A stretch of DNA of 32,000 bases, taken from positions 120,001 through 152,000 of the forward strand of contig NZ_CP043316.1 of NCBI RefSeq assembly GCF_008189405.1, in the 5' to 3' direction. The DNA comes from Candidatus Saccharimonadota bacterium (GTDB lineage Bacteria; Pseudomonadota; Alphaproteobacteria; CAJXXZ01; 1604HC). The translations under genes were made by a program, and so were the position numbers. Below the pieces are notes generated by a model, which made no database searches, was not told the origin of the DNA, and saw only the letters and a program-made list of their open reading frames with translations. Of the stretch, positions 4,272 to 31,082 are shown piece by piece. Within the stretch, counting starts at the first letter, position 1. Every line of letters starts with the position of its first letter.

Positions 4272-4790
4272 ATGCGTAGTTATAGATTAGTCTGTGTATT
4301 ACAACAGATTCTTTCAGCTGAAGAAGCACAATTGCAAGTTGATAAAATTACAAATCATCTTACAGAAAATAATGGTGAAATCATTGGTGTGAAGAATTTT
4401 GGTTTGATGAAGTTAGCTTATCAAATGAATAGAAATGCACGTGGTCATTATTTTATTATAGATTTTAAGCTTGATCCTTTGAAAGTTAAATCACTAAGAA
4501 GTTTAATGAGTTTGAATGATAAGTTTTTAAGAGATATTATTGTTATACTAGATAAAGAGAGTAAAACGTTAGATAAAATTAGTTTTGCTGCAGATAAAAA
4601 TAGAGAAAGAAAGCTAGATCTTATAATTGGGGAATCTGCTTTCTTGAATAATTTGGGTCAATTTATCAGTACATATGGTAAAATATTATCCAGACATATT
4701 ATAGGTATATCTTCAAAACAAATGAGATGTCTATCTCAAGCTATTAAGAGAGCCAGATATATTGGCTTGCTTCCTTTCAGAATTCAATAA
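4272..4790 (+). CDS. rpsF-rpsR: Single ORF fusing 30S ribosomal protein S6 (N-terminal ~100 aa) to 30S ribosomal protein S18 (C-terminal ~60 aa)
   Basis: The N-terminus MRSYRLVCVL...GLMKLAYQMNRNARGHYFIIDF...LNDKFLRDIIV aligns with S6 (E. coli MRHYEIVFMV...[22 protein letters not shown]...FNDAVIRSMV). The C-terminus LGQFISTYGKILSRHIIGISSKQMRCLSQAIKRARYIGLLPF aligns with S18 ([42 protein letters not shown]). No stop codon separates them. Confidence 0.85.
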   Translation: MRSYRLVCVLQQILSAEEAQLQVDKITNHLTENNGEIIGVKNFGLMKLAYQMNRNARGHYFIIDFKLDPLKVKSLRSLMSLNDKFLRDIIVILDKESKTLDKISFAADKNRERKLDLIIGESAFLNNLGQFISTYGKILSRHIIGISSKQMRCLSQAIKRARYIGLLPFRIQ

Positions 4791-4870
4791 TCATTAGTAT
4801 TATTCTATATATTATTAGTTTTATATAAGTAATGATTTGGTTGATTTATCTTTATATATTATGGTTGGTC

Positions 4871-6016
4871 ATGAAGTCAAATAAAATTATTTTAAGCATT
4901 ATTTTTTCTTATTCTGTAAATGCTGGTGATGATTATGAGTCATTGCATTATACTATGCCAGATGGGGATCAGGAAGAAATGATTTCTCATTTTATAGATA
5001 GGAATATAGAGAGTAGCCAAGATAATAAATCTAATAAATGTGATTTTGTTGCTGTATTAAATGTAATTGCCTTGCAAGAAAGTTATGAACTAAGTGATGG
5101 TGATTTATCTTTTATGCAGAGCTTTAGCAAGAGTGATAATAATCTGCTTGGAGATAAAATTCTGAGATTAGTGGATAGTTTTTGTGTGAGATATCATATT
5201 CCTTATGCATCTCAATTGCTGAATAGGCAAATTACTAGAGAATATTGCGATGGACATGAATATGAATTGCCAATTCAATATGATGAAGATTTGGTGCGTT
5301 CAACAATGTTACCTCAAGATTTAATGGATGAATTACATAGTAATATTGTTGATATTCCAGATTCTATATTTACAAATATATTAACAGGTTTGATTGGTTG
5401 TGGGCGATTTTATAATCAAGAATTTAGATCAACAGCAGCTTTAAATTATTTGAGTTATAATTCAAATTATATAATGCTAATGCAAATATTAAATTTAAAT
5501 TTCAATTGTGATTTGTATGATGGTAGTGAATTTAGCTTGCATTTAAAATATAAAAACAATTTGGCAATAAGTAAATTATTTGAGCTATATTCATATAATG
5601 CACATAAGGTATTTAGCATGAATAGTGATGTAATGCAGTTGTTGCAAATTGCTGAGATTGATTCACTTTCCCTACCTAGGAGTCAGGTACATGTTATTGA
5701 GTATTTATTGAGCAATAATATTATGAGATTTCCAAGAAGCTTAACATTTAACAATACTCATAATGAGTTTGAAAAATATACATTTAATATGATACCAAAT
5801 GGTGAGTCATTTAAATTATACGTTGATCTTCTTGAAGATATATCATGTATTGAATCAAGAGAGAAATCAGAGAAGATTTTAGAATTCTATGCTAAATACT
5901 ATACAATGGAAAAATCACCTAATATGATTGCTGGGCAGTATGTATATGATTTGACAATAAAATCTGGATTGTTCAATGCATATTGTGGTGAGATTGAAGA
6001 ATCAACTACAAGCTGA
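4871..6016 (+). CDS. Hypothetical secreted protein (lineage-specific ORFan)
   Basis: A long ORF in AT-rich DNA. The internal ATG at 4871 gives MKSNKIILSIIFSYSVNA|GDDY, a classic Sec signal peptide with a VNA-G cleavage site. I recognise no domain or motif. The track start at 4832 is probably too far upstream. Confidence 0.6.
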   Translation: MKSNKIILSIIFSYSVNAGDDYESLHYTMPDGDQEEMISHFIDRNIESSQDNKSNKCDFVAVLNVIALQESYELSDGDLSFMQSFSKSDNNLLGDKILRLVDSFCVRYHIPYASQLLNRQITREYCDGHEYELPIQYDEDLVRSTMLPQDLMDELHSNIVDIPDSIFTNILTGLIGCGRFYNQEFRSTAALNYLSYNSNYIMLMQILNLNFNCDLYDGSEFSLHLKYKNNLAISKLFELYSYNAHKVFSMNSDVMQLLQIAEIDSLSLPRSQVHVIEYLLSNNIMRFPRSLTFNNTHNEFEKYTFNMIPNGESFKLYVDLLEDISCIESREKSEKILEFYAKYYTMEKSPNMIAGQYVYDLTIKSGLFNAYCGEIEESTTS

Positions 6017-11970: not shown

Positions 11971-13479
11971 CTATGCTTTTTTATATATACTATCTAAATA
12001 TGATGTCTGTGCTTTTGGTTTTAGGTTATTAAGGTACTGTGTTTGCGATTCTGTTTTGTAATACAATGTGTTTAAGTATGCTTCTGTAGGTGATGGGCGA
12101 CTAGCAGCACTTGCAGCTCTATAATCACTTCTTTGAGATGTAGAGAATTGATTTTTATATGGATCTGATTCTTCAGCATATTCAGGATCTATTTCATTCA
12201 TCATATATATTGAAGGTGAATATGTCCTTTCATTAGGATTATTTAATGAAGTTATATTTTCATTATTTTGTTGTGCTACACCTTGCATTTCTCTATGTGA
12301 TACTGCTAGAGCATTGGGTTCTTTATATCGAGAATCTTTTGCTATCAATTCAAGTGCGTACATTGGTTGCATTGGTAATGGGGCAGGTAGTAATGCTGAA
12401 TTATTTTTCATAGTATCATTACTAGTTTTAGGTTGTTGAGATTCAATTGAGGCAGATTCTGGTGTTATATTCTGCGTGCTACTTGATTGACCTGTTGTTG
12501 TGGTATATGAACTTTGATCTGGTGAGTGAGGTGGATATGGTGGAAGTGGCAAAGTGGCATTAATATTTGGTAGGTTCATTGTATTGATCATTTGATTAAG
12601 AATTAGTACATATAAAGCTTCGTACCTATTAGGTTGATATATATTATTTTCAGGTTTGTTCTGGAGAAACTCAATACTTGGAAAATGCATTTGATCTTTA
12701 TATTGTTTCAAGCAATTTTCATGAGCATTGTTAATGCCTGCCAATATTTGATTATTTAATTTATTGTTCAATATTTTTAATTCTGTTAGTGTTTGTACAC
12801 AACAAAATTGGGAAACTGTATTAATATGTTGTACAGCGCGGTGTATGTTATGTGCAGCTGGATATTGTTTTAGTATGCTCGATAATGCACCATGATTAAA
12901 CCCACTATTTGTAAGATATCTGCCCATATTGTTCTCTTTTGTTTCATATTCAACATTTTCTATATTGTTTGAGATATTACGAATGCATGATAAAATTTCT
13001 TCATCTAATACTTGTTTGAAAGAATCCAATAATGATAATTTAATTTGATTGTTCATTTGTTTGTGAGCTAATTCTGTAATATATGCTGAAATTAGCTTGG
13101 GAACTGTATGTGATTTTGTCTCACAATGTTCAGTGCTATTTTTTATTGAATGCAATGTATCAGCACTAATTTCTTTAGAATTTTTGATTTTATTATCTTT
13201 AAATAACTCTAATTGATTAGAGTTTAATTTGTAATACTTACATTCATTTCTATTGACATATACATCAAACTTTTCATTCTTGATTTTAATATTTTGAATT
13301 ATAAACCCCATAATTTCATCGCTATTCAATTGAGAAATATCGGATCGTATAATTGCACTAAATGCCTGAGATTCAACATGATGTTTATCATCATCTGATA
13401 GATCTGTTAGTGTTATAGAATTAACATGAAGTGCTGTTAAGAAAATAGAAAATAATATTTTATTGTTCATGTTTTCCAT
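11971..13479 (-). CDS. Hypothetical secreted protein with a structured N-terminal half and a Pro/Ser/Thr/Gln/Tyr-rich low-complexity C-terminal half
   Basis: A 502-aa ORF. The N-terminus MENMNNKILFSIFLTALHVNS|ITL looks like a Sec signal peptide. From about residue 300 the sequence is low complexity (LPLPPYPPHSPDQSSYTTTTGQSSSTQ...). I recognise no domain. Confidence 0.65.
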   Translation of the reverse strand: MENMNNKILFSIFLTALHVNSITLTDLSDDDKHHVESQAFSAIIRSDISQLNSDEIMGFIIQNIKIKNEKFDVYVNRNECKYYKLNSNQLELFKDNKIKNSKEISADTLHSIKNSTEHCETKSHTVPKLISAYITELAHKQMNNQIKLSLLDSFKQVLDEEILSCIRNISNNIENVEYETKENNMGRYLTNSGFNHGALSSILKQYPAAHNIHRAVQHINTVSQFCCVQTLTELKILNNKLNNQILAGINNAHENCLKQYKDQMHFPSIEFLQNKPENNIYQPNRYEALYVLILNQMINTMNLPNINATLPLPPYPPHSPDQSSYTTTTGQSSSTQNITPESASIESQQPKTSNDTMKNNSALLPAPLPMQPMYALELIAKDSRYKEPNALAVSHREMQGVAQQNNENITSLNNPNERTYSPSIYMMNEIDPEYAEESDPYKNQFSTSQRSDYRAASAASRPSPTEAYLNTLYYKTESQTQYLNNLKPKAQTSYLDSIYKKA

Positions 13480-17170: not shown

Positions 17171-17297
17171 CTTTATTTCTACCTTTCATTTTTTAAATTC
17201 TTACCTTTCATTACGAATTTTGAATTTATAATTGTGCCATTACATTTCAATTTATTAGTAATTTTATATTGATTATTTATTTTCTTTTGCAAATTAA

Positions 17298-17603
17298 TCA
17301 TGCTTTAAATGATGTTCCACAATGACAAGTTTTTTTGAAGTGCTGACTTGTGATTTGAAATTTTTCTTCCATTAAATTTTCAATGAAATCTATAGTAGCA
17401 TTTTCAATTTTAGATAATGTAAATTTATCCACTAATACTGTTTTGTTTTGATGTTGAAATGCTACATCTTCCTCCATAGAAGATTCAGGGAATGAAAACT
17501 CATATTTAAACCCATTACATCCTCCGAAGAAAACTTTAATTTTTACAAAAGATTTCTTCATTTGATCTAACCTATTAATTGCATTTTCAGAAAGATAAAC
17601 CAT
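17298..17603 (-). CDS. erpA: Iron-sulfur cluster insertion/carrier protein, HesB/IscA/ErpA family
   Basis: GGCNGFKYEFSF together with the C-terminal CHCGTSF gives the three-Cys A-type carrier signature Cx(n)CGCGxSF. The likely start is MVYLSENAINRL at 17603; the track start is 17624. Confidence 0.85.
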   Translation of the reverse strand: MVYLSENAINRLDQMKKSFVKIKVFFGGCNGFKYEFSFPESSMEEDVAFQHQNKTVLVDKFTLSKIENATIDFIENLMEEKFQITSQHFKKTCHCGTSFKA

Positions 17604-17805
17604 AACTATAATTTTAACATACAATATTAAATTCTAATATACGGGAACTGTTAGAATGCAAATCATTAAATATTGGGATTAGAGCAGAAATCATAAAATG
17701 TACAAAAAAATGTAGAAAATGTAGAAATAAAAGAAGTATATAAAAAAAGCATTTGAAAGTTATGGTGATTAAATATATAATGCATATAAATTTATTGGAG
17801 GTTTT

Positions 17806-18486
17806 TTGAACAGGAAAAATATTATAGAACAAGCAATCAAAGGGATAGATTTGATCAGTAAACTTGGTTTAGATGCTGATATAATTGGATTTAAATCAGC
17901 TGATAAAGTTTATGACTTACATGCAGAGATCCCTGTAAATACAGAGGTTATTTCTTTATATAAGAGTGATGATGAATATATACATTTTCTTAGGCATGAT
18001 GCAGCGCATGTTTTAGCTCAAGGGTTGACGCATATATTCCCAAACATAGAGTTTGGTAAACAATTTTTTAAAGATACAAACGTATTTGGATTTGATGTGT
18101 TCTTTCCAGAGCATAAGTTCACCAAGGATGATTTCCCAAAAATTGAAAAAGCCATGAAGGATGTTGTTGCAAAAAGTGATGATATTATTAGGCATGTTTG
18201 GTCAAAAGAGAAAGCATTGCAATATTTTCCGAATGATCAATTTAAGCAAGATATTATTTCTAATGCACCTAAAAATACAATCATGTTATATGAGCATGGC
18301 GATTACATAGATATTTGTGGTGGTCCGCGTGGAATGAATAATAGTCATGTTGGTAATCATTTTGTGCTATTAGATGTACAGGACTCAGAATGGATGTTTA
18401 ATTCTTCTAAGAAAATGCAAAGAATTATATGCGCATGTTTTAGGAATGAGTCTGAGATGAAAGATTTCTTAATGGAATATAAATAA
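17806..18486 (+). CDS. Free-standing ThrRS N-terminal paralog (TGS-like N1 plus N2 editing domain), with no catalytic or anticodon-binding domain
   Basis: 226 aa that align with E. coli ThrRS residues ~1-240: LRHDAAHVLAQGL vs IRHSCAHLLGHAI, YIDICGGPRG vs YVDMCRGPHV, and KKMQRIICACF vs KMLQRIYGTAW. The TTG start at 17806 is preceded by GGAGG at 17797-17801. It ends 26 nt before thrS. Confidence 0.75.
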   Translation: MNRKNIIEQAIKGIDLISKLGLDADIIGFKSADKVYDLHAEIPVNTEVISLYKSDDEYIHFLRHDAAHVLAQGLTHIFPNIEFGKQFFKDTNVFGFDVFFPEHKFTKDDFPKIEKAMKDVVAKSDDIIRHVWSKEKALQYFPNDQFKQDIISNAPKNTIMLYEHGDYIDICGGPRGMNNSHVGNHFVLLDVQDSEWMFNSSKKMQRIICACFRNESEMKDFLMEYK

Positions 18487-18512
18487 ATTATGTATTATAA
18501 TTTGAGATCAGT

Positions 18513-20489
18513 ATGATAGAAATCAATTTAGGTAATTCGGTAGAACAATTTGGGTCTGGTGTTTCTACTTTTTCTATAATAGAAGAGCTAGGGAATAAAG
18601 CAAAAGATGTTATAGGGTTTAAGTGTACAAAAACAGGCCAAGTATATGATTTGCATAGCTATTTACGTGGGCCTATTTCAGTTGCTCCAATCAAAACTAA
18701 TACCGCAGAGCATTTAGAGATGATTAGAAATGATGCAGGGCATATTTTATCTCATGTATTATCAGATTTATATAATGCAGCCACAGTAGATATTAAAATT
18801 ACAGAACATGGATTTTATGTTGATTTTTATTGTGATAAATCTATTTCTGAACATGATTTTGGCAAAATAGAGAAAAAAATGAATCAATTAATTATGAAAA
18901 ATGATAGATTTATTATTAACTCTTTGAATAAAGAAGAAGCATTAGGTTTGTTTGAGCAGTTAGGTAATAAATTTGCATCTACAATAGTTCAAAATAGTAA
19001 CGATGAGTGTTTTTCTGTGCATACACATGGGAATCATAAAGTTTTGGCAGAAGGATCTCGTAGTCTAAGTACTAAAAGTATAGGGAAGCATTTTAAAATT
19101 TTATCTATATCTGGCTCTGAATGGGAACATGGATCTGAGAAATTACAAAGGATTCATGGCACTTGCTGGTATGATAAAGAATCACTGGAAAGTCATTTGA
19201 AGAATATAGAAGAAAATTTAAAGTGGGATCATAGAATAATTGGAAAACAAATGTCTATGTTTAATATTGATCCTGAGATTGCTAGTGGAATGGTGTTTTG
19301 GCTTCCAAATGGTGTGAAAGCGCTTAATAAAATTAGAGAGTATTTAAGAAGTACCTGGGTCGAATATGGATATCAAGAAGTTTCAACCCCAATCGTAATG
19401 AACTCTAATTTATGGGATAAGTCTGGCCATACTGAAATGTTTAGAGAAAATATGATGTTTATGAGTTTGCAGGATAATGATTATGCGTTAAAGCCAATGA
19501 GTTGTCCTGCTCATATTAATATTTTCAAATTAGGAAATAAGAGTTATAGAGATTTACCTTATAAGTTATCTGAATTTGGATTATGCCATAGATATGAGCC
19601 TTCAGGGTCTTTACAAGGGTTGATGAGAGCAAGAAGTTTTACACAAGATGATGCTCATGTATTTGTTTCTGAAGAGCAAATTGAAGGTGTGATTCTAGAT
19701 TTCTGTGAGATGGTAAAAGTTGTTTATAAGAAGTTTGGATTTGATAAGATATTGGTATGCTTGGCAACTAGACCTGAGAAGTATATTGGAGAAATATCTG
19801 CATGGGATCAAGCTGAAAGAGCTTTGCTAGATGCAGCAAATAAATCTGATCTTAATTGTACAATTAATGAAGGTGAAGGAGCATTTTATGGACCTAAGCT
19901 AGAATTTTCAATTAAAGATAGAAAAGGGCATGTATGGCAATGTGGAACAGTACAAGTCGATTTCTCTCTTGCAAAAAGGTTGGAGGCTTTTTATACAGAT
20001 GAAAATGCTGATAGAAAAGCTCCTGTAGTTATTCATCATGCTGTTCTAGGATCTTTAGAAAGATTTTTTGGAATACTATTAGAGAATACAAAAGGGTTAT
20101 TACCATCATGGGTGCATCCATACCCTATAGCTATTTTGCCTATTAAAAATTCACAAGAAGAGTATGCAAATTCTATTAAAAATGCAATGAAGCTCTATAG
20201 TATTGATTGTGAAATTGATAATTCTAATCAAACATTGGGTTATAAAATAAAGCATTGGATAGACAAAAGGACTCCTTATATATTAATTATTGGAGCAAAA
20301 GAAGAACAGTCTAATAAAGTTACATTACGATTATTAGATGGAAAGGAAGAAAGTTTGACTTTAGAAGAGCTTATATCAAAAATTGGAGCTATGAAAGAAA
20401 CTGTTGATTCTATAGAGATAAATAGAAATGTAAATGATACAAATAGCAATGGGGCAAGTAGAACTGCAGATGGAGTTATAAATGAATAA
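18513..20489 (+). CDS. thrS: Threonyl-tRNA synthetase (full length)
   Basis: 658 aa. It has DHRIIGKQ, KPMSCPAHINIF, HRYEPSGSLQGLMRARSFTQDDAHVF, GEGAFYGPKLEF, WQCGTVQVDF and VVIHHAVLGSLERF. The Zn ligands equivalent to E. coli C334, H385 and H511 are present, followed by an anticodon-binding domain. Confidence 0.95.
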   Translation: MIEINLGNSVEQFGSGVSTFSIIEELGNKAKDVIGFKCTKTGQVYDLHSYLRGPISVAPIKTNTAEHLEMIRNDAGHILSHVLSDLYNAATVDIKITEHGFYVDFYCDKSISEHDFGKIEKKMNQLIMKNDRFIINSLNKEEALGLFEQLGNKFASTIVQNSNDECFSVHTHGNHKVLAEGSRSLSTKSIGKHFKILSISGSEWEHGSEKLQRIHGTCWYDKESLESHLKNIEENLKWDHRIIGKQMSMFNIDPEIASGMVFWLPNGVKALNKIREYLRSTWVEYGYQEVSTPIVMNSNLWDKSGHTEMFRENMMFMSLQDNDYALKPMSCPAHINIFKLGNKSYRDLPYKLSEFGLCHRYEPSGSLQGLMRARSFTQDDAHVFVSEEQIEGVILDFCEMVKVVYKKFGFDKILVCLATRPEKYIGEISAWDQAERALLDAANKSDLNCTINEGEGAFYGPKLEFSIKDRKGHVWQCGTVQVDFSLAKRLEAFYTDENADRKAPVVIHHAVLGSLERFFGILLENTKGLLPSWVHPYPIAILPIKNSQEEYANSIKNAMKLYSIDCEIDNSNQTLGYKIKHWIDKRTPYILIIGAKEEQSNKVTLRLLDGKEESLTLEELISKIGAMKETVDSIEINRNVNDTNSNGASRTADGVINE

Positions 20490-21027
20490 ACATAAAAAGA
20501 AGAAAGTCATAATGAATGAGTATATCCGTGCTGATCAAGTATCTGTTATACAAGACAAAGAAAAGATGGGAGCTATGTCATTGAATGCTGCATTGAATAT
20601 GGCAGAGGATCAGGGATTAGATTTAGTACAGGTTTCTGATGATGATATTCCTACTTGTAGATTGATGGATTACAAACAATTTTTGTATAAACAAAACAAA
20701 AAAAATGCTGAAATCAAGAGAAAGTCCAAGTCATTTGAAATCAAAGAGATTCAAATTAGACCTAGAATAGGACAACATGACTTAGATACAAAAGCAAGGC
20801 ATGCTCGTAGATTTCTTGAAGATGGGAATAAAGTGAAAGTTGTATTGAAATTAAGAGGTAGAGAAATGGCTCATGTTGATCTAAACATTGAGAATGTTCT
20901 GAAGCAGTTTGCATTACAATTAGATGATATTTCTAGTATAGAAAAAGAGCCAAAACAAGAAATGAAAAATAGGATTTTTATGACTATTAAGCCTGACCCT
21001 TCTAAGTCAGAAAAAGAGCAGGCTTAA
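20482..21027 (+). CDS. infC: Translation initiation factor IF-3
   Basis: INEYIRADQVSVIQ...LDLVQVSDDDIPTCRLMDYKQFLYK...IKEIQIRPRIGQHDLDTK...LRGREMAH aligns along its length with E. coli IF3. ATG at 20482 overlaps the thrS stop by 8 nt. The exact start is uncertain because IF3 often uses atypical starts; ATG at 20512 is also possible. Confidence 0.9.
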   Translation: MNKHKKKKVIMNEYIRADQVSVIQDKEKMGAMSLNAALNMAEDQGLDLVQVSDDDIPTCRLMDYKQFLYKQNKKNAEIKRKSKSFEIKEIQIRPRIGQHDLDTKARHARRFLEDGNKVKVVLKLRGREMAHVDLNIENVLKQFALQLDDISSIEKEPKQEMKNRIFMTIKPDPSKSEKEQA

Positions 21028-21037
21028 TCATAATTGT

Positions 21038-22804
21038 ATGCAACTTATTCTTAGGTTTTTCCAATTAATATCAAATTTACTGATTTTTAGCCTATTAAGT
21101 CTATTACTATTATTGTTTGGACTCATCAATCGAAAAAACATTTCACTATTAGATCATAAAATTCAATTTGACTCTATTCATATGACTAGTAATGGATTTT
21201 CAGTTAATGACATAAAATATCGTAATGTGCATATAAAATCTTTAAATATTGGAATTATCAAGCCATTCATAAATATAAAGAAATTTAATATTTTTAAAAT
21301 AGATTTTGATATGAATATGTACTATAAGAATGGATTGCATATTGATAGCGCTATATTAAATAATAAGCTACGATTCAAATCACTAATACATAAGAATGTA
21401 ATAAATATTACTACATCTGGGTTAGATCAATCAGAGTTTAAAGGCGTATATTATGGTAGCAATATTATTATGAGATTGCCCAAAGGATTATTTGTTTTGT
21501 CTGATGGAAGGTTAAATATAAACTCAGAAAATAAAAAATATTTCTTGATGTTTAAGGCTGATTTATATAAAAAAGAAGTGCAGAAGATGAACTTTTATTC
21601 TAAAACAAAAAAGCTAAATATATCTTTTGATGAAATGTGGAATTTTGAATCTAAAAATGAAAATATGCACTTAAAAATGCAATTGGATAAATATTTAATT
21701 GGTGATGGAAAGATTATAATTAATAAAAAATTTGGAATATTAGATTCTCATTTAAACTTTAAAATCAATGCATCAAATATGAAAGTACATGCCTATAACT
21801 ATGGAAAGCAATTTATTAAAATTAATGATTTTGGCTTGCATGAACAGAAAATTAAGTGGGACCTACATTTTAATGTGAATGAGCAATTCTTTACTTTGAA
21901 ATCAGATAACTTGAAGGTTGATGCAAAGTTTCTGACAAATAATATTAAATTTAACTTGTTTTTGAATTCAGATAAAATTGATCTTGCGGCATTTGGTAAG
22001 ATGGATTACTACAATAACATTCAAATAGAAGGGTATGGAGATTATATTTCATTATTAGATATGCAATCTCTATTTAAAAAAGGTAGTGATAATTCTATAG
22101 AATGTGATTTTAAGTGGAAAAAAGCCAAATGGATTGCAGATTTGTTTTTAGAGGATATGACAGTGAATTGTTATAAAAATAAAGACGGATTTAAATCATG
22201 TTTGATTAATTCTCATTTTGAAGGTAATCCTGTGAAATTATGGAAAAGTACAGTTCCATCTCCATTGCATTTTAAAATATGGAATTTTGCTCGTGCATTT
22301 GAATTGATGTATGGAGAAAAACTATTCAAATCAACAGGCATATTAGATGGATCAATTCATGTAAGCAAGAAAGGAATGCCATGGAATTTTACACTGTACG
22401 ATTTTGAGAGTATGCAGAATCTAAATGCTATTTACTTGCAAATATTATCTTTAAAATTCTGGGCATCTATATTTAAAAACAATCAAAAGAAATGGGATCA
22501 CCTTACTGGTAATGGGCATATTTCACACAATAAATATGAAATTGATCATTTTGAGATGGACAATGATTATTTTAATGTTAATGGGTCAGGATTTATACAT
22601 AGGCATGATGATTTAATGGATATAAATGGGCTTTTGCTATCTAAATCTCTTACTAATGATTTGCAAGATCTAATGAATCGAAAAGATAGAAATAAAATAC
22701 CTTTTCATATGTATGGTGGGTTGAAAGATATAAAAGTGGACAATCAGGTTGGATTTAAGAAATTGGCTGTTCCTATACTTCCTTTGGCATTTTTTCTTAT
22801 ATAA
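21038..22804 (+). CDS. Hypothetical membrane-anchored protein, possibly AsmA/TamB-like (weak)
   Basis: 588 aa. The N-terminal hydrophobic anchor is LISNLLIFSLLSLLLLLFGLI, and the C-terminus is hydrophobic (LAVPILPLAFFLI). The body is Asn/Lys-rich with beta-strand-like alternation. The AsmA-like call rests only on architecture and size, not on a recognised motif. Confidence 0.5.
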   Translation: MQLILRFFQLISNLLIFSLLSLLLLLFGLINRKNISLLDHKIQFDSIHMTSNGFSVNDIKYRNVHIKSLNIGIIKPFINIKKFNIFKIDFDMNMYYKNGLHIDSAILNNKLRFKSLIHKNVINITTSGLDQSEFKGVYYGSNIIMRLPKGLFVLSDGRLNINSENKKYFLMFKADLYKKEVQKMNFYSKTKKLNISFDEMWNFESKNENMHLKMQLDKYLIGDGKIIINKKFGILDSHLNFKINASNMKVHAYNYGKQFIKINDFGLHEQKIKWDLHFNVNEQFFTLKSDNLKVDAKFLTNNIKFNLFLNSDKIDLAAFGKMDYYNNIQIEGYGDYISLLDMQSLFKKGSDNSIECDFKWKKAKWIADLFLEDMTVNCYKNKDGFKSCLINSHFEGNPVKLWKSTVPSPLHFKIWNFARAFELMYGEKLFKSTGILDGSIHVSKKGMPWNFTLYDFESMQNLNAIYLQILSLKFWASIFKNNQKKWDHLTGNGHISHNKYEIDHFEMDNDYFNVNGSGFIHRHDDLMDINGLLLSKSLTNDLQDLMNRKDRNKIPFHMYGGLKDIKVDNQVGFKKLAVPILPLAFFLI

Positions 22805-24644: not shown

Positions 24645-24861
24645 AATATAATTTGATATTAATTCCCTATACTTTTGTTTTTAGTTATAAGTAAATAAAT
24701 TTACTTTGTTTTTATTTTATAAATTTTCTAGGTATTGCTTAATTAATAATTGAATTAAAATGTATTATTTTCAAATTATGTGTTATTATATCACGTAAGA
24801 TTTGATTTTAATTTGATTGATTTTAATTTCTAATAAATTTAGAAAAAAGATAGGAATAAAT

Positions 24862-26097
24862 ATGAACGATAATGTGAACACAAAAGTTTCAGAAGCAAAA
24901 GAAAGTAATTCTGCAGGAAGCAATAGAGATAATTCTAATTCTGGTGGATTTGAAAGAAGAGAACGTTCTGGTGGAAACCGTGATGGTGGTGGATCCAGAG
25001 ATGGAAGATCTGGCGATCGCGGCGGATTTGAAAGAAGAGAACGTTCTGGTGGATTCGGTGGCAGAGGCCGTGATGGTGGATTCAGAGGCGGATTCGGTGG
25101 TGGAAGATCATTTGGCGGCGGAAGTCGTGATGGTGGATCCAGAGGTGGATTCGGTGGCGGAAGATCTGATGATCGAGGTGGATTTGGCGGAAGAGATTCT
25201 GGCAATTCAGAAAGAGGAAGCGAAGGCGGATTTGAAAGAAGAGAACGTTCTGGTAGATTCGGTGGCGGAAGCCGTGATGGCGGATCCAGAGGTGGATTCG
25301 GTGGTGGAAGATCATTTGGCGGCGGAAGCCGTGATGGCGGATCCAGAGGTGGATTCGGTGGTGGAAGATCATTTGGTGGCGGAAGCCGTGATGGTGGATC
25401 TAGAGGCGGATTTGGCGGAAGAGATTCTGGCAATTCAGAAAGAAGAAGCGAAGGCGGATTTGAAAGAAGAGAACGTTCTGGCGGATTCGGTGGCGGAAGC
25501 CGTGATGGCGGATCCAGAGGTGGATTCGGTGGCGGAAGATCATTTGGTGGTGGAAGCCGTGATGGTGGATCCAGAGGCGGATTTGGCGGAAGAAGATCTG
25601 ATGATCGCGGTGGATTTGGTGGAAGAGATTCTGGCAATTCAGAAAGAGGAAGCGAAGGCGGATTTGAAAGAAGAGAACGTTCTGGCGGACGTGATGGCGG
25701 ATCCAGAGGTGGATTCGGTGGCGGAAGATCATTCGGCGGCGGAAGTCGTGATGGTGGATCCAGAGGCGGATTTGGCGGAAGAGACTCTAACAGAAATGGT
25801 TCAAGTTTCGGCAATAACAACAGATATAATGACAGAGATGAATCCAGATCAAATGATTTTAAGAAACATGATGATTTGAGCATTGATAACAACAATGAAA
25901 ATAGCGAAATTAAATTCGATAGTTTCGAAATTGAAGGTAATTCAAAAGTAACAGTTGATTCAGAAGATACAAGCTCAGTAGTAACAATTGATTCAGAAGA
26001 TACAAGTTCAGTAGCAACAGTTGATTCAGAAGTAGCAGTTGGTTCAGAAGAAGATTCAAGCGAATCTAACGATACAGAAAATTCTGATAACTCATAA
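24862..26097 (+). CDS. Gly-Arg-rich (RGG/GAR-like) repeat protein with acidic Ser/Asp/Glu C-terminal tail; no recognisable folded domain
   Basis: The ATG at 24862 gives MNDNVNTKVSEAKESN... A ~280-aa array of GGFERRERSG and GGSRDGGSRGGFGGGRSF units follows. The same frame then stays open for ~100 further codons of AT-rich non-repeat sequence (NNRYNDRDES...DSEDTSSV...SNDTENSDNS). Codon choice (AGA/CGT Arg, GAA, GAT) matches neighbouring genes. The strand call is not fully certain; see findings. Confidence 0.7.
   Translation: MNDNVNTKVSEAKESNSAGSNRDNSNSGGFERRERSGGNRDGGGSRDGRSGDRGGFERRERSGGFGGRGRDGGFRGGFGGGRSFGGGSRDGGSRGGFGGGRSDDRGGFGGRDSGNSERGSEGGFERRERSGRFGGGSRDGGSRGGFGGGRSFGGGSRDGGSRGGFGGGRSFGGGSRDGGSRGGFGGRDSGNSERRSEGGFERRERSGGFGGGSRDGGSRGGFGGGRSFGGGSRDGGSRGGFGGRRSDDRGGFGGRDSGNSERGSEGGFERRERSGGRDGGSRGGFGGGRSFGGGSRDGGSRGGFGGRDSNRNGSSFGNNNRYNDRDESRSNDFKKHDDLSIDNNNENSEIKFDSFEIEGNSKVTVDSEDTSSVVTIDSEDTSSVATVDSEVAVGSEEDSSESNDTENSDNS
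24943..25790 (+). repeat. Nested coding tandem repeat: 54-nt subunit inside ~204-228-nt higher-order units
   Basis: The marker ggatttgaaagaagagaacgttctgg starts at 24946, 25024, 25228, 25456 and 25660, giving spacings of 78, 204, 228 and 204 nt. Between markers there are 1-3 copies of the 54-nt unit encoding GGSRDGGSRGGFGGGRSF. Copies differ mainly at third codon positions. Confidence 0.85.
25954..26040 (+). repeat. 33-nt coding tandem repeat (x2.6) encoding (V/I)DSEDTSSV(V/A)T
   Basis: gttgattcagaagatacaagctcagtagtaaca (25954-25986) is followed by attgattcagaagatacaagttcagtagcaaca (25987-26019), then a partial gttgattcagaagtagcagtt. Confidence 0.8.
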
Positions 26098-30206: not shown

Positions 30207-31082
30207 ATGTACAGAAAAATCTTATTGACTGTGAGCGCTTTGATGATCACTGAATCTGCTCAGGGTAAAGTTAATAGCTGTTATAGCAAAAGAAGAGTCA
30301 ATGCTGCTTTGTATGCTGGAGGAGGAGCAAGATTCCAAGGTTCTAAGGCTAAAGAAATAGAGACAAAATATACAGGTAAATTAGCTAATATTACATTGCC
30401 TGTTAATAGCACTCAAGAATTTGATTTCGAGCAGAATGGAAAAGCTGGATATTTCTTTGGGCGATTGGGAGCTTTTGCTGTAATGCCTATTTCTTCATCA
30501 TTCAAGGCTGGAATAGATGTGTTTGGTGATATTGGAAAAAGAAAATCTTACTTTAATAATGTGCATGAGTTAGTTAAGGGTAAATCTCCAGAAGTAGTGC
30601 CTGCACCTGATCCTGATCCTAATCCTAATAACACTCCTCAAGCTATCCCTGTTACACAAGCAACAGGTGATATTGGATCTGATAAAGGAGAATCACTATT
30701 AAGAATGACCCATATGTTCAGTGTTTACACAGGATTAAGAATGCATTACAGCTTCTCAGATTCTATGGACGCTCACATTGGGCTTGGTGGTATGATTTCT
30801 GATGCTAAGTATAGAATCGAATCATTTGGATCTACTAAATATACAGAAACAAGTAGAAAATATGAATTTGGTGGTTACTTGAAAGCTGGAATTTTATGGA
30901 CATTCGCTAATAAATTCTTTGTTGCTGGAGATATTATTGGTCAAATGAGAGCAAATAAAAAAATTGACATTAATGCATTCACTATAGCGGATAAGACAGA
31001 GGCTCATAATTTGAAATTCAAGAGAGCAGGTATGTTTGGAGTTAATGGTTCAATTACTGCTGGTATTCACTTGATCAAATAA
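30207..31082 (+). CDS. Putative outer-membrane beta-barrel protein / surface antigen
   Basis: It has the signal peptide MYRKILLTVSALMITESAQG|K. Amphipathic beta-strand-like segments rich in Gly and aromatics are present (GYFFGRLGAFAV, FSVYTGLRMHYSF, GGYLKAGILWTF, FGVNGSITAGIHL). There is a Pro/Asp/Asn loop, PAPDPDPNPNNTP. No terminal Phe and no specific family motif was recognised. Confidence 0.55.
   Translation: MYRKILLTVSALMITESAQGKVNSCYSKRRVNAALYAGGGARFQGSKAKEIETKYTGKLANITLPVNSTQEFDFEQNGKAGYFFGRLGAFAVMPISSSFKAGIDVFGDIGKRKSYFNNVHELVKGKSPEVVPAPDPDPNPNNTPQAIPVTQATGDIGSDKGESLLRMTHMFSVYTGLRMHYSFSDSMDAHIGLGGMISDAKYRIESFGSTKYTETSRKYEFGGYLKAGILWTFANKFFVAGDIIGQMRANKKIDINAFTIADKTEAHNLKFKRAGMFGVNGSITAGIHLIK

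Follow-up and report, generated by a model that had tools for sequence, protein, structure and literature searches.

This study concerns two adjacent genes in a 32,000-nt stretch of DNA (positions 120,001 to 152,000 of contig NZ_CP043316.1, assembly GCF_008189405.1; hereafter the window, to which all coordinates refer unless another locus is named): thrS, which encodes a full-length threonyl-tRNA synthetase (ThrRS), and a short open reading frame (ORF) directly upstream of it. The product of the short ORF corresponds to the N1 and N2 domains of bacterial ThrRS and retains editing-site residues that the adjacent full-length enzyme has lost. The locus, with residues of the short protein matched to those of Escherichia coli ThrRS, is organized as follows.

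17753-17781, + strand: promoter-like TTGAAA-17-TATAAT, about 25 nt 5' of the short ORF (pattern match only)
17797-17801, + strand: Shine-Dalgarno sequence GGAGG of the short ORF, read from the sequence
17806-18486, + strand: short ORF, 226 aa, TTG start; free-standing ThrRS N1 domain (TGS-like, about aa 1-55) and N2 editing domain (about aa 56-226), putative trans-acting Ser-tRNA(Thr) deacylase
17992-18009, + strand: RHDAAH, the HxxxH editing motif of the short protein (H64 and H68, equivalent to E. coli H73 and H77), invariant in 7/7 short orthologs and lying inside the block HFLRHDAAHVLA
18052-18069, + strand: FGKQFF (aa 83-88), just upstream of F95 (E. coli Y104), invariant in the 6 aligned short proteins
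18241-18258, + strand: FKQDII with K147 (E. coli K156), invariant in all short orthologs
18286-18330, + strand: LYEHGDYIDICGGPR, with Y162 (Y173), D169 (D180), C171 (C182), G173 (G184) and R175 (Arg in place of H186); all short orthologs carry YEHGDYIDIC.GPRG unchanged
18513-20489, + strand: thrS, full-length ThrRS, 658 aa, ATG start
18513-19220, + strand: 5' part of thrS, N1-N2 region (aa 1-236), predicted fold kept, editing site degenerate
18726-18743, + strand: RNDAGH, degenerate HxxxH motif of the window ThrRS
19017-19061, + strand: VHTHGNHKVLAEGSR, degenerate DxCxGxH stretch of the window ThrRS
19221-20489, + strand: 3' part of thrS, encoding the linker, the class II catalytic core and the anticodon-binding domain, all intact
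20482-21027, + strand: infC, sharing 8 nt with the end of thrS, the last gene of the conserved short ORF-thrS-infC string

The initial annotation of this stretch had described a 226-aa ORF with a TTG start and a GGAGG motif ending 26 nt before thrS, and the same coordinates and gap were obtained here. The promoter-like element matches at 11/12 positions and is the top sigma-70-like match in 17200-21200, and no terminator-like site was found in the same interval, both by pattern scan only. Rfam at the gathering threshold returned only two tRNAs in the window, and no T-box or other leader RNA. The short ORF, thrS and infC are probably co-transcribed.

BLASTP aligned the short protein with residues 4-229 of the adjacent ThrRS (29% identity, E=8e-28), and phmmer against the PDB aligned it only to the N1-N2 region of bacterial ThrRS (residues ~43-233, Staphylococcus aureus and E. 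coli), with E-values of 1.9e-22 for 1nyq, 1.6e-14 for 1tje and 3.9e-14 for 1qf6. Both searches agree with the earlier claim that the ORF aligns only with the TGS and N2 domains of bacterial ThrRS. The NCBIfam model TIGR00418 matched at profile positions 1-163 only (E=5e-18), and the short ORF, which is without the synthetase core, stays at 65.3 bits against the cutoff of 383.65 for the threonine--tRNA ligase equivalog; Pfam found no HGTP_anticodon domain in it. Modelling of both N2 domains had been proposed as a check and was carried out with AlphaFold2. The short protein was modelled with a mean predicted local distance difference test score (pLDDT) of 95.6 and a predicted template modelling (TM) score of 0.91, and the N-terminal 245 residues of the window ThrRS with a pLDDT of 92.9; both fold as ThrRS N1-N2. 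The top Foldseek matches of the short-protein model were the N1-N2 regions of ThrRS in 6vu9, 1nyq, 1qf6 and 1tje (TM 0.81-0.87, E ~1e-16), followed by chains of the mitoribosomal protein mL39 (TM 0.72-0.77) and then by AlaRS and AlaX. The short ORF has its own start, Shine-Dalgarno sequence and stop wherever a genome or contig holds the whole gene. Like known trans-editing factors, its product is a separately encoded homolog of an aminoacyl-tRNA synthetase editing domain with the catalytic residues kept.

A survey of related genomes, also suggested earlier, located the pair of short ORF and thrS in the same gene order in at least eight genomes or contigs (Candidatus (Ca.) Cytomitobacter, Ca. 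Nesciobacter and related metagenome-assembled genomes, MAGs), a group of ~560-630-kb endosymbionts of marine diplonemid protists to which the window belongs as well. The short ORF is intact wherever it lies fully on the contig and is syntenic in seven genomes or contigs of two genera; in the eighth case, a 5.7-kb Logan contig opens with its C-terminal 44 residues, directly upstream of thrS. This phyletic distribution was drawn from protein searches. A protein search gave orthologs of 53-67% identity from Ca. Cytomitobacter indipagum (CP043315), a 558-kb alphaproteobacterial MAG (CP060235) and three ENA/NCBI assemblies, and a profile search of 1.84 billion representatives gave a distant member from Ca. 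Nesciobacter abundans (CP043314) at 264 bits, all remaining matches being at or below 133 bits, the range of ordinary ThrRS N-termini. A GTDB genome scan with the short-ORF alignment returned two already-known genomes among the matches listed. The gene order in every locus is UDG (family 4 uracil-DNA glycosylase) - erpA-like <> short ORF - thrS - infC - large ORF, and the central short ORF-thrS-infC order is the same in loci L001-L004, L007, L017 and L018. The distance from the stop of the short ORF to the start of thrS is 26, 25, 39, 26, 22, -4 and -1 nt, the two overlaps being those of L004 and L007. GGAGG or AGGAGG precedes the orthologs in L001, L003 and L007, and a TATAAT box lies at a similar distance upstream of those in L001, L003, L004 and L007.

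Two further observations were made on thrS in this clade. In L018 7679-9614, on a 2x-coverage ENA contig, thrS was called in two pieces (449 and 128 aa) with the upstream short ORF intact; the split probably reflects sequencing error at low coverage, not a pseudogene. A eukaryote transcriptome fragment (P0017, EukProt TRINITY_DN12677, 385 aa) is 58% identical to the clade ThrRS, which places transcripts of symbiont thrS in a host RNA dataset.

The editing-site residues were numbered on E. coli ThrRS (translation of MG1655 thrS), on which the set given in the initial annotation (H73, H77, K156, D180, C182 and H186) proved to be right, and were counted in 7 short orthologs, 8 clade ThrRS and 137 other ThrRS.

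H73: short proteins H 7/7; clade ThrRS N/Y/H/Q; other ThrRS H 135/137
H77: short proteins H 7/7; clade ThrRS H/Y/N; other ThrRS H 136/137
Y104: short proteins F 7/7; clade ThrRS V/I/L; other ThrRS Y 134/137
K156: short proteins K 7/7; clade ThrRS A/I; other ThrRS K 137/137
Y173: short proteins Y 7/7; clade ThrRS H/C; other ThrRS Y 137/137
D180: short proteins D 7/7; clade ThrRS V/I/L; other ThrRS D 135/137
C182: short proteins C 7/7; clade ThrRS S/A/L/C; other ThrRS C 137/137
G184: short proteins G 7/7; clade ThrRS G 6/8 (also D, K); other ThrRS G 137/137
H186: short proteins R 7/7; clade ThrRS R 5/8 (also A, C, I); other ThrRS H 136/137

These data demonstrate an asymmetric retention of the editing site. 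As had been claimed, the short copy keeps five of the six residues, and it also keeps Y173 and G184, with Y104 changed to Phe; in its DxCxGxH motif, D, C and G are kept and the final His is Arg, a residue found at position 186 in none of the 137 outgroup ThrRS (0/137). The window ThrRS carries N73, H77, V180, A182 and R186. Its residue at K156 depends on the alignment, since HMMER pairs the K of GNKF with this position and MAFFT with the orthologs gives Ala, Lys being present in no ortholog; the loss of the site asserted earlier is therefore upheld, and the firm count of two of six given for the full-length enzyme becomes one to two of six. Retention of the editing residues by the full-length enzyme had been named as a finding that would overturn the proposal, and all eight clade ThrRS proved degenerate against the near-invariance in the 137 others. 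Tyr at position 173 is known to separate the editing domain of ThrRS from that of AlaRS, which has V, I, L or T there (PMC12003907), and mutation of the E. coli residues lowers the editing kcat 7000-fold in H73A, >500-fold in C182A/S and 70-fold in H186A (PMC4041444). The free-standing copy further differs by FGKQFF, which stands in place of the canonical (T)IGPxIE, is absent from the ThrRS consensus and is confined to this copy; a 2-residue insertion downstream of it, near the pocket, is invariant in the short-ORF family.

The synthetic site of the full-length enzyme was described earlier as intact, and the comparison with E. coli bears this out: the Zn ligands C334, H385 and H511 and nine core positions (R363, E365, Q381, D383, Y462, K465, Q479, Q484 and R520) are identical in 6/6 clade ThrRS, and position V376 is Ala or Thr. 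The window ThrRS scores 540.6 bits with TIGR00418 (cutoff 383.65) and matches Pfam tRNA-synt_2b (1.2e-43) and HGTP_anticodon (3.2e-17). No Pfam TGS or tRNA_SAD match was found in its N-terminus or in the other listed clade ThrRS; tRNA_SAD was found in nearly all other listed ThrRS. According to the models, the cis N1-N2 region is a domain whose fold is kept and whose chemistry is lost, since the N-terminal 245 residues are modelled confidently and in the same order of secondary-structure elements as the short protein. This region is the fastest-evolving part of the locus, although it remains under some constraint as a scaffold (Nei-Gojobori (NG86) ratio ~0.16-0.38, with saturated synonymous divergence, dS). 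The window ThrRS is also longer than six of its orthologs (658 aa versus 623-633 aa), and carries an extra Asn/Ser-rich C-terminal tail of ~30 aa (20391-20489, the 3' end of thrS).

Constraint on the short gene was evaluated by substitution rates and amino-acid conservation. The estimate of the ratio of nonsynonymous to synonymous divergence (dN/dS) proposed in the initial annotation was run and proved unreliable because synonymous sites are saturated (proportion of synonymous differences, pS, 0.63-0.82 by Nei-Gojobori, with several dS undefined), and only relative dN and amino-acid conservation were used; these did reveal constraint. In 10/10 pairs, dN was smaller for the short ORF (0.24-0.41) than for the ThrRS N-terminal region (0.30-0.58); it exceeded the dN of the ThrRS core (0.18-0.28). 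On average, pairs of short proteins were 55% identical, compared with 56% each for ErpA and IF3, 47% for the N-terminal region of ThrRS and 66% for its core. In the alignment of the short proteins, 77 columns are invariant, most densely at the HxxxH, K156 and DxCxGP motifs, and the longest invariant blocks, HFLRHDAAHVLA, FKQDII and YEHGDYIDIC.GPRG, are the catalytic motifs. A decaying duplicate, the second outcome that had been named as overturning the proposal, is excluded by the dN, the identity and the invariance of the catalytic motifs, in a gene that is intact and syntenic in seven genomes or contigs.

The two genes share an origin by duplication. At 12 positions, the short and full-length clade proteins have in common a residue that occurs in <10% of outgroups (R186 in 0%, C222 and E235 in 1% each, K214 in 2%, F38 and Y45 in 4% each). 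In a neighbour-joining (NJ) tree of N1-N2 regions, each paralog clade was recovered in 200/200 bootstraps and their union in 173/200, and the topology is mirrored in the two paralog clades, with Nesciobacter basal in both. The shared derived positions and the NJ union support the old within-lineage tandem duplication proposed earlier. The motifs first cited for it hold in part: G37 and F38 (IGFK) and Y45 and H48 (VYDLH) are shared and rare elsewhere, whereas KIEK.M is general ThrRS consensus. Raw similarity was discarded as evidence for duplication: with the short-ORF profile, generic ThrRS N-termini reach up to 133 bits, more than the co-clade ThrRS P0013 (99 bits), whose score is lower because it diverged fast; raw similarity being misleading, shared derived characters and the tree were used. 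The data fit one tandem partial duplication before the split of Cytomitobacter and Nesciobacter, in an ancestor that would already have had R186; such an ancestor suggests that R186 is compatible with a working single-copy enzyme.

From these data we propose, with a probability of about 0.6, that the locus encodes an editing-dead synthetase together with a Ser-tRNA(Thr) deacylase that is of bacterial N2 type and acts in trans, generated by tandem duplication of the N1-N2 region. The subfunctionalisation suggested in the initial annotation is supported in that none of the in silico tests run against it refuted it, the activity itself being a prediction. In the proposed mechanism, an ancestor of the Cytomitobacter and Nesciobacter endosymbionts would have duplicated the 5' part of thrS in tandem; the full-length ThrRS would have kept aminoacylation while the catalytic residues disappeared from its N2 pocket and the domain survived as a folded scaffold only, and the upstream 226-aa copy would have kept the N2 hydrolytic site. 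The ThrRS may occasionally make and release Ser-tRNA(Thr), and the free N1-N2 protein may bind the aminoacylated CCA end and hydrolyse the ester by the canonical N2 machinery, in which H64 (H73) and K147 (K156) would activate water and C171 (C182) would work with the 2'-OH of A76, Thr being shut out sterically as in cis editing.

Several findings in the literature are consistent with this proposal. The synthetic site of ThrRS cannot exclude Ser (PMC4787780), and the enzyme depends on post-transfer editing by N2 (PMC4787780; PMC11295145). As the cis site is dead and the synthetic site is intact in the clade, Ser-tRNA(Thr) should therefore be made and released. An engineered fragment of yeast ThrRS consisting of the N-extension, N1 and N2 hydrolyses Ser-tRNA(Thr) in isolation, less efficiently than the native enzyme (PMC3592468), and the apo-T1 ThrRS of Anabaena edits in trans for the editing-defective T2 (PMC4787780). 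The CP1 motifs WTTTPWT and GTGLVHTAP are retained by the IleRS that the window also encodes, which argues that there is no general decay of editing in this genome.

Other points weigh against the proposed function. The activity of the short protein may be reduced or altered by the replacement of H186 with Arg, in view of the kcat loss of E. coli H186A, and FGKQFF together with the 2-residue insertion near the pocket could reflect a changed substrate. The anticodon-binding domain gives cis editing its tRNA specificity (PMC11295145), and the sparing of Ser-tRNA(Ser) by a free N1-N2 protein, which is without this domain, is a difficulty for the proposal. The Pfam scan of the short protein gave no match at E<=0.01, PF07973 (tRNA_SAD) and PF02824 (TGS) included; its sequence is too diverged for these models. 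The functional reading of the short protein is based on sequence and structural models, the dN/dS of its gene cannot be estimated reliably, and the union of the short and full-length clades may be inflated by long-branch attraction, as both are long branches.

One of these difficulties would be eased if the short protein were a bound subunit docked on ThrRS, forming a heteromeric enzyme with quasi-cis (channelled) editing instead of hydrolysis of released Ser-tRNA(Thr), ThrRS's anticodon-binding domain giving the tRNA specificity; this would solve the specificity problem (PMC11295145) and has a parallel in the Anabaena T1-T2 heterodimers, which supply editing (PMC4787780). The tightly coupled or overlapping coding regions, as in L004 and L007, and the remaining constraint on the full-length N1-N2 scaffold also speak for such a subunit. 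We nevertheless consider it unlikely, since the folded N1-N2 of ThrRS itself occupies the cis position and no docking site is obviously vacant. Moreover, ThrRS dimerises via its core, which the short protein is without. A deacylase with a shifted substrate (Ser- or Gly-tRNA(Ala) in the manner of AlaX, Ala-tRNA(Thr) or another), by which ThrRS editing would not be replaced, appears less probable again. The short protein does belong to the AlaX superfamily, with a weak match to NCBIfam AlaXM (NF040865, E=3.4e-4) and the Foldseek matches to AlaX and AlaRS, and the derived, invariant FGKQFF, Y104F and H186R lie near the pocket. However, the AlaXM match reaches 20.4 bits against a cutoff of 300, the shared derived positions and the NJ tree indicate descent from ThrRS and not from AlaRS or AlaX, the ThrRS-specific Y173 is kept, and one of the four Zn ligands that the AlaRS editing domain always keeps is lost; the lost editing residues of the co-resident ThrRS are also best explained by functional replacement.

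We give little credence to a non-catalytic protein derived from ThrRS N1-N2 that is RNA-binding, ribosome-associated or regulatory, like mL39. The mL39 chains are the next-best structural matches after ThrRS, but the similarity is not significant by phmmer (E 0.68-0.77), and the strict invariance in all orthologs sits exactly on HxxxH, K156 and DxCxGP, which a structural role would not predict. The TTG start, the missing Pfam match and the label of hypothetical protein in public records could point to an ORF without function, either an annotation artefact or a partial duplicate in decay. This explanation is effectively refuted by the comparative data, namely the intact, syntenic gene in seven genomes or contigs over two genera plus the fragment on an eighth contig, and its conservation like that of IF3 and ErpA despite saturated synonymous sites; the pLDDT of the model likewise stands against it. 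The trans-acting Ser-tRNA(Thr) deacylase thus stays the preferred reading.

Stand-alone ThrRS N1-N2 genes were also found in MAGs of uncultured Clostridia from gut or rumen, namely P0152 (237 aa) and the 249-aa P0276, for which the annotation is hypothetical; the two are 74% identical, and the architecture of the endosymbiont gene is therefore not unique. Their loci are the following.

L008 5001-5714: Clostridia N1-N2 gene
L013 888-1637 (also L014, L015): Clostridia N1-N2 gene

P0152 and P0276 lie directly upstream of infC-rpmI-rplT, with a non-coding gap of ~250-300 bp where the ThrRS core would be expected, and keep H73, H77, K156, Y173, C182, G184 and H186, with D180 changed to E. Neither a T-box nor another leader RNA was found upstream of the N1-N2 gene of Clostridia. 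Of the many 229-240-aa matches in the representative search, most are indistinguishable from contig-end fragments without context, and citation is limited to those whose stop and context were verified. Two candidates were set aside. In L016 8001-9911, with the same upstream synteny, a single in-frame TAA interrupts a full-length thrS in place of the Tyr in the conserved RIYG motif; the gene was not counted as a clean split thrS (215 + 411 aa), since this TAA may stem from misassembly or from a nonsense mutation of recent date. P0232 (244 aa) ends at a poly-A homopolymer frameshift in L010, after which the next frame continues the ThrRS sequence (DHRKIG...LF...VFW), and it therefore belongs to an ordinary full-length thrS. 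The free-standing N1-N2 genes of Clostridia may have arisen independently, via loss of the core. A broader and clearly more tentative idea, to which we would give rather less than even odds, is that N2-type proteins, or 'ThrX', represent an overlooked trans-editing class with at least two origins, by tandem partial duplication followed by death of the cis site in the endosymbionts and by loss of the core from thrS in Clostridia. The endosymbiont editor might then resist Zn inhibition and oxidative inactivation of C182, because the invariant H186R removes a Zn ligand and the thiolate-activating His.

Other features of the window were noted. The gene after infC in the clade is always a large ORF of 506-727 aa whose product has a hydrophobic segment at the N-terminus; no Pfam or NCBIfam match was found for it.

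21038-22804, + strand: large ORF after infC in the window (L001 9245-10936; L002 9119-10879; L004 9103-10881; L007 11200-13383)

A 172-aa ORF at 4272-4790 (+) contains Ribosomal_S6 (aa 4-91) and Ribosomal_S18 (aa 128-167), so that rpsF and rpsR appear fused, and a fused product of 174-175 aa was also called in L001 and L003. The ORFs at 4832-6016 (+), 11971-13479 (-) and 30207-31082 (+), of 394, 502 and 291 aa, gave no NCBIfam match, and those of 394 and 502 aa no Pfam match either. Long ORFs of opposite strands overlap at 24786-26097, one of 369 aa (-) and two of 426 and 311 aa (+). Otherwise, this is a highly reduced genome, densely filled with housekeeping genes.

If the proposed function is true, the short protein fills a gap, being an editor of the bacterial/eukaryotic ThrRS N2 type that occurs naturally as a free-standing protein. 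The trans-editing factors treated in the literature comprise AlaX, YbaK/ProXp (including ProXp-ST1/2), DTD, ATD and the archaeal DTD-like ThrRS-ed, and a bacterial N2-type free-standing protein is absent from these lists (PMC11295145, PMC7373986, PMC4787780). The Cytomitobacter genome preprint makes no mention of tRNA synthetases, editing or duplication. The initial annotation was aware of no earlier description of the arrangement, and our full-text literature search found no description of it, although such a search cannot prove absence. The locus would represent a natural experiment in subfunctionalisation, with a dead-editing synthetase and a domain-only editor preserved across two genera, and opens to testing the recognition of tRNA by N2 without an anticodon-binding domain, the sparing of Ser-tRNA(Ser) and the retention of a dead domain. 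A structure-function test is offered by R186, a natural substitution at a site with implied roles in catalysis and in the redox sensing of C182. Caution is also needed with surveys that score synthetase editing sites alone, which would call this ~620-kb endosymbiont deficient in ThrRS editing and may be wrong.

Compared with known systems, the cis N2 domain of ThrRS (E. coli residues 1-224; 1TJE/1TKY) is the direct evolutionary parent of the short protein and shares with it the fold (TM 0.81-0.87), the N1+N2 architecture and H73, H77, K156, D180, C182 and Y173. The short protein differs in being a separate gene without catalytic and anticodon-binding domains, in Arg for H186 and Phe for Y104, in the derived FGKQFF, and in having a full-length neighbour that carries an inactive copy of the same domain. 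The stand-alone mL39 also combines TGS and a ThrRS-N2-like domain in nature, at TM 0.72-0.77 to the short protein, but is a structural protein of the mitochondrial ribosome without significant sequence similarity (E ~0.7). To our knowledge, mL39 is not an editing enzyme. AlaX (AlaXp-S/M/L) is a free-standing homolog of a synthetase editing domain from the same superfamily, with HxxxH and CxGxH-type motifs (Foldseek E 1e-5 to 1e-7). It is derived from AlaRS, acts on tRNA(Ala), and has four Zn ligands and an aliphatic residue where ThrRS has Y173, whereas the short protein has Tyr 173, Arg for the fourth Zn ligand and a TGS-like N1, which sets it outside AlaX. AlaRS normally keeps its own editing site, so that AlaX is redundant and not a replacement. 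The bacterial free-standing ProXp-ST1 and ProXp-ST2 of the INS superfamily hydrolyse Ser-tRNA(Thr) in trans (PMC11295145), but have an unrelated YbaK/INS fold and also hydrolyse Thr-tRNA(Thr) in vitro.

In Mycoplasma and other host-restricted bacteria, ThrRS editing deficiency has been read, according to reviews, as a real loss of quality control with tolerated mistranslation (Li et al. 2011, Melnikov et al. 2018b, reviewed in PMC7373986). The endosymbionts likewise have a reduced genome, a host-restricted life and a ThrRS with a degenerate editing site; unlike in Mycoplasma, a conserved paralog keeps the editing site, which suggests that fidelity is maintained. In crenarchaea (Sulfolobus and others), ThrRS-cat is described in reviews as accompanied by a separate ThrRS-ed that clears Ser-tRNA(Thr) (Korencic et al. 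2004, reviewed in PMC7373986, PMC11295145). The division of labour would be the same as that predicted here, a ThrRS without working editing and a separate editor, but ThrRS-ed has a DTD-like fold and an anticodon-binding domain, whereas the short protein has the unrelated bacterial N2 fold and no such domain, and the archaeal ThrRS-cat is without the N-terminal domain altogether while the clade ThrRS keeps a dead N2. Anabaena T1/T2 likewise arose by duplication of a bacterial thrS, in which one copy lost editing and the other supplies it in trans (PMC4787780); both are full-length synthetases, T2 is impaired by an insertion and not by loss of catalytic residues, and the switch is zinc-conditional, whereas the putative editor of the endosymbionts is a permanent domain-only protein. 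By analogy, the endosymbiont pair may be regarded as functionally similar to the crenarchaeal ThrRS-cat/ThrRS-ed, with an unrelated fold and a different origin, and as evolutionarily similar to Anabaena T1/T2, with a predicted editor reduced to its domain.

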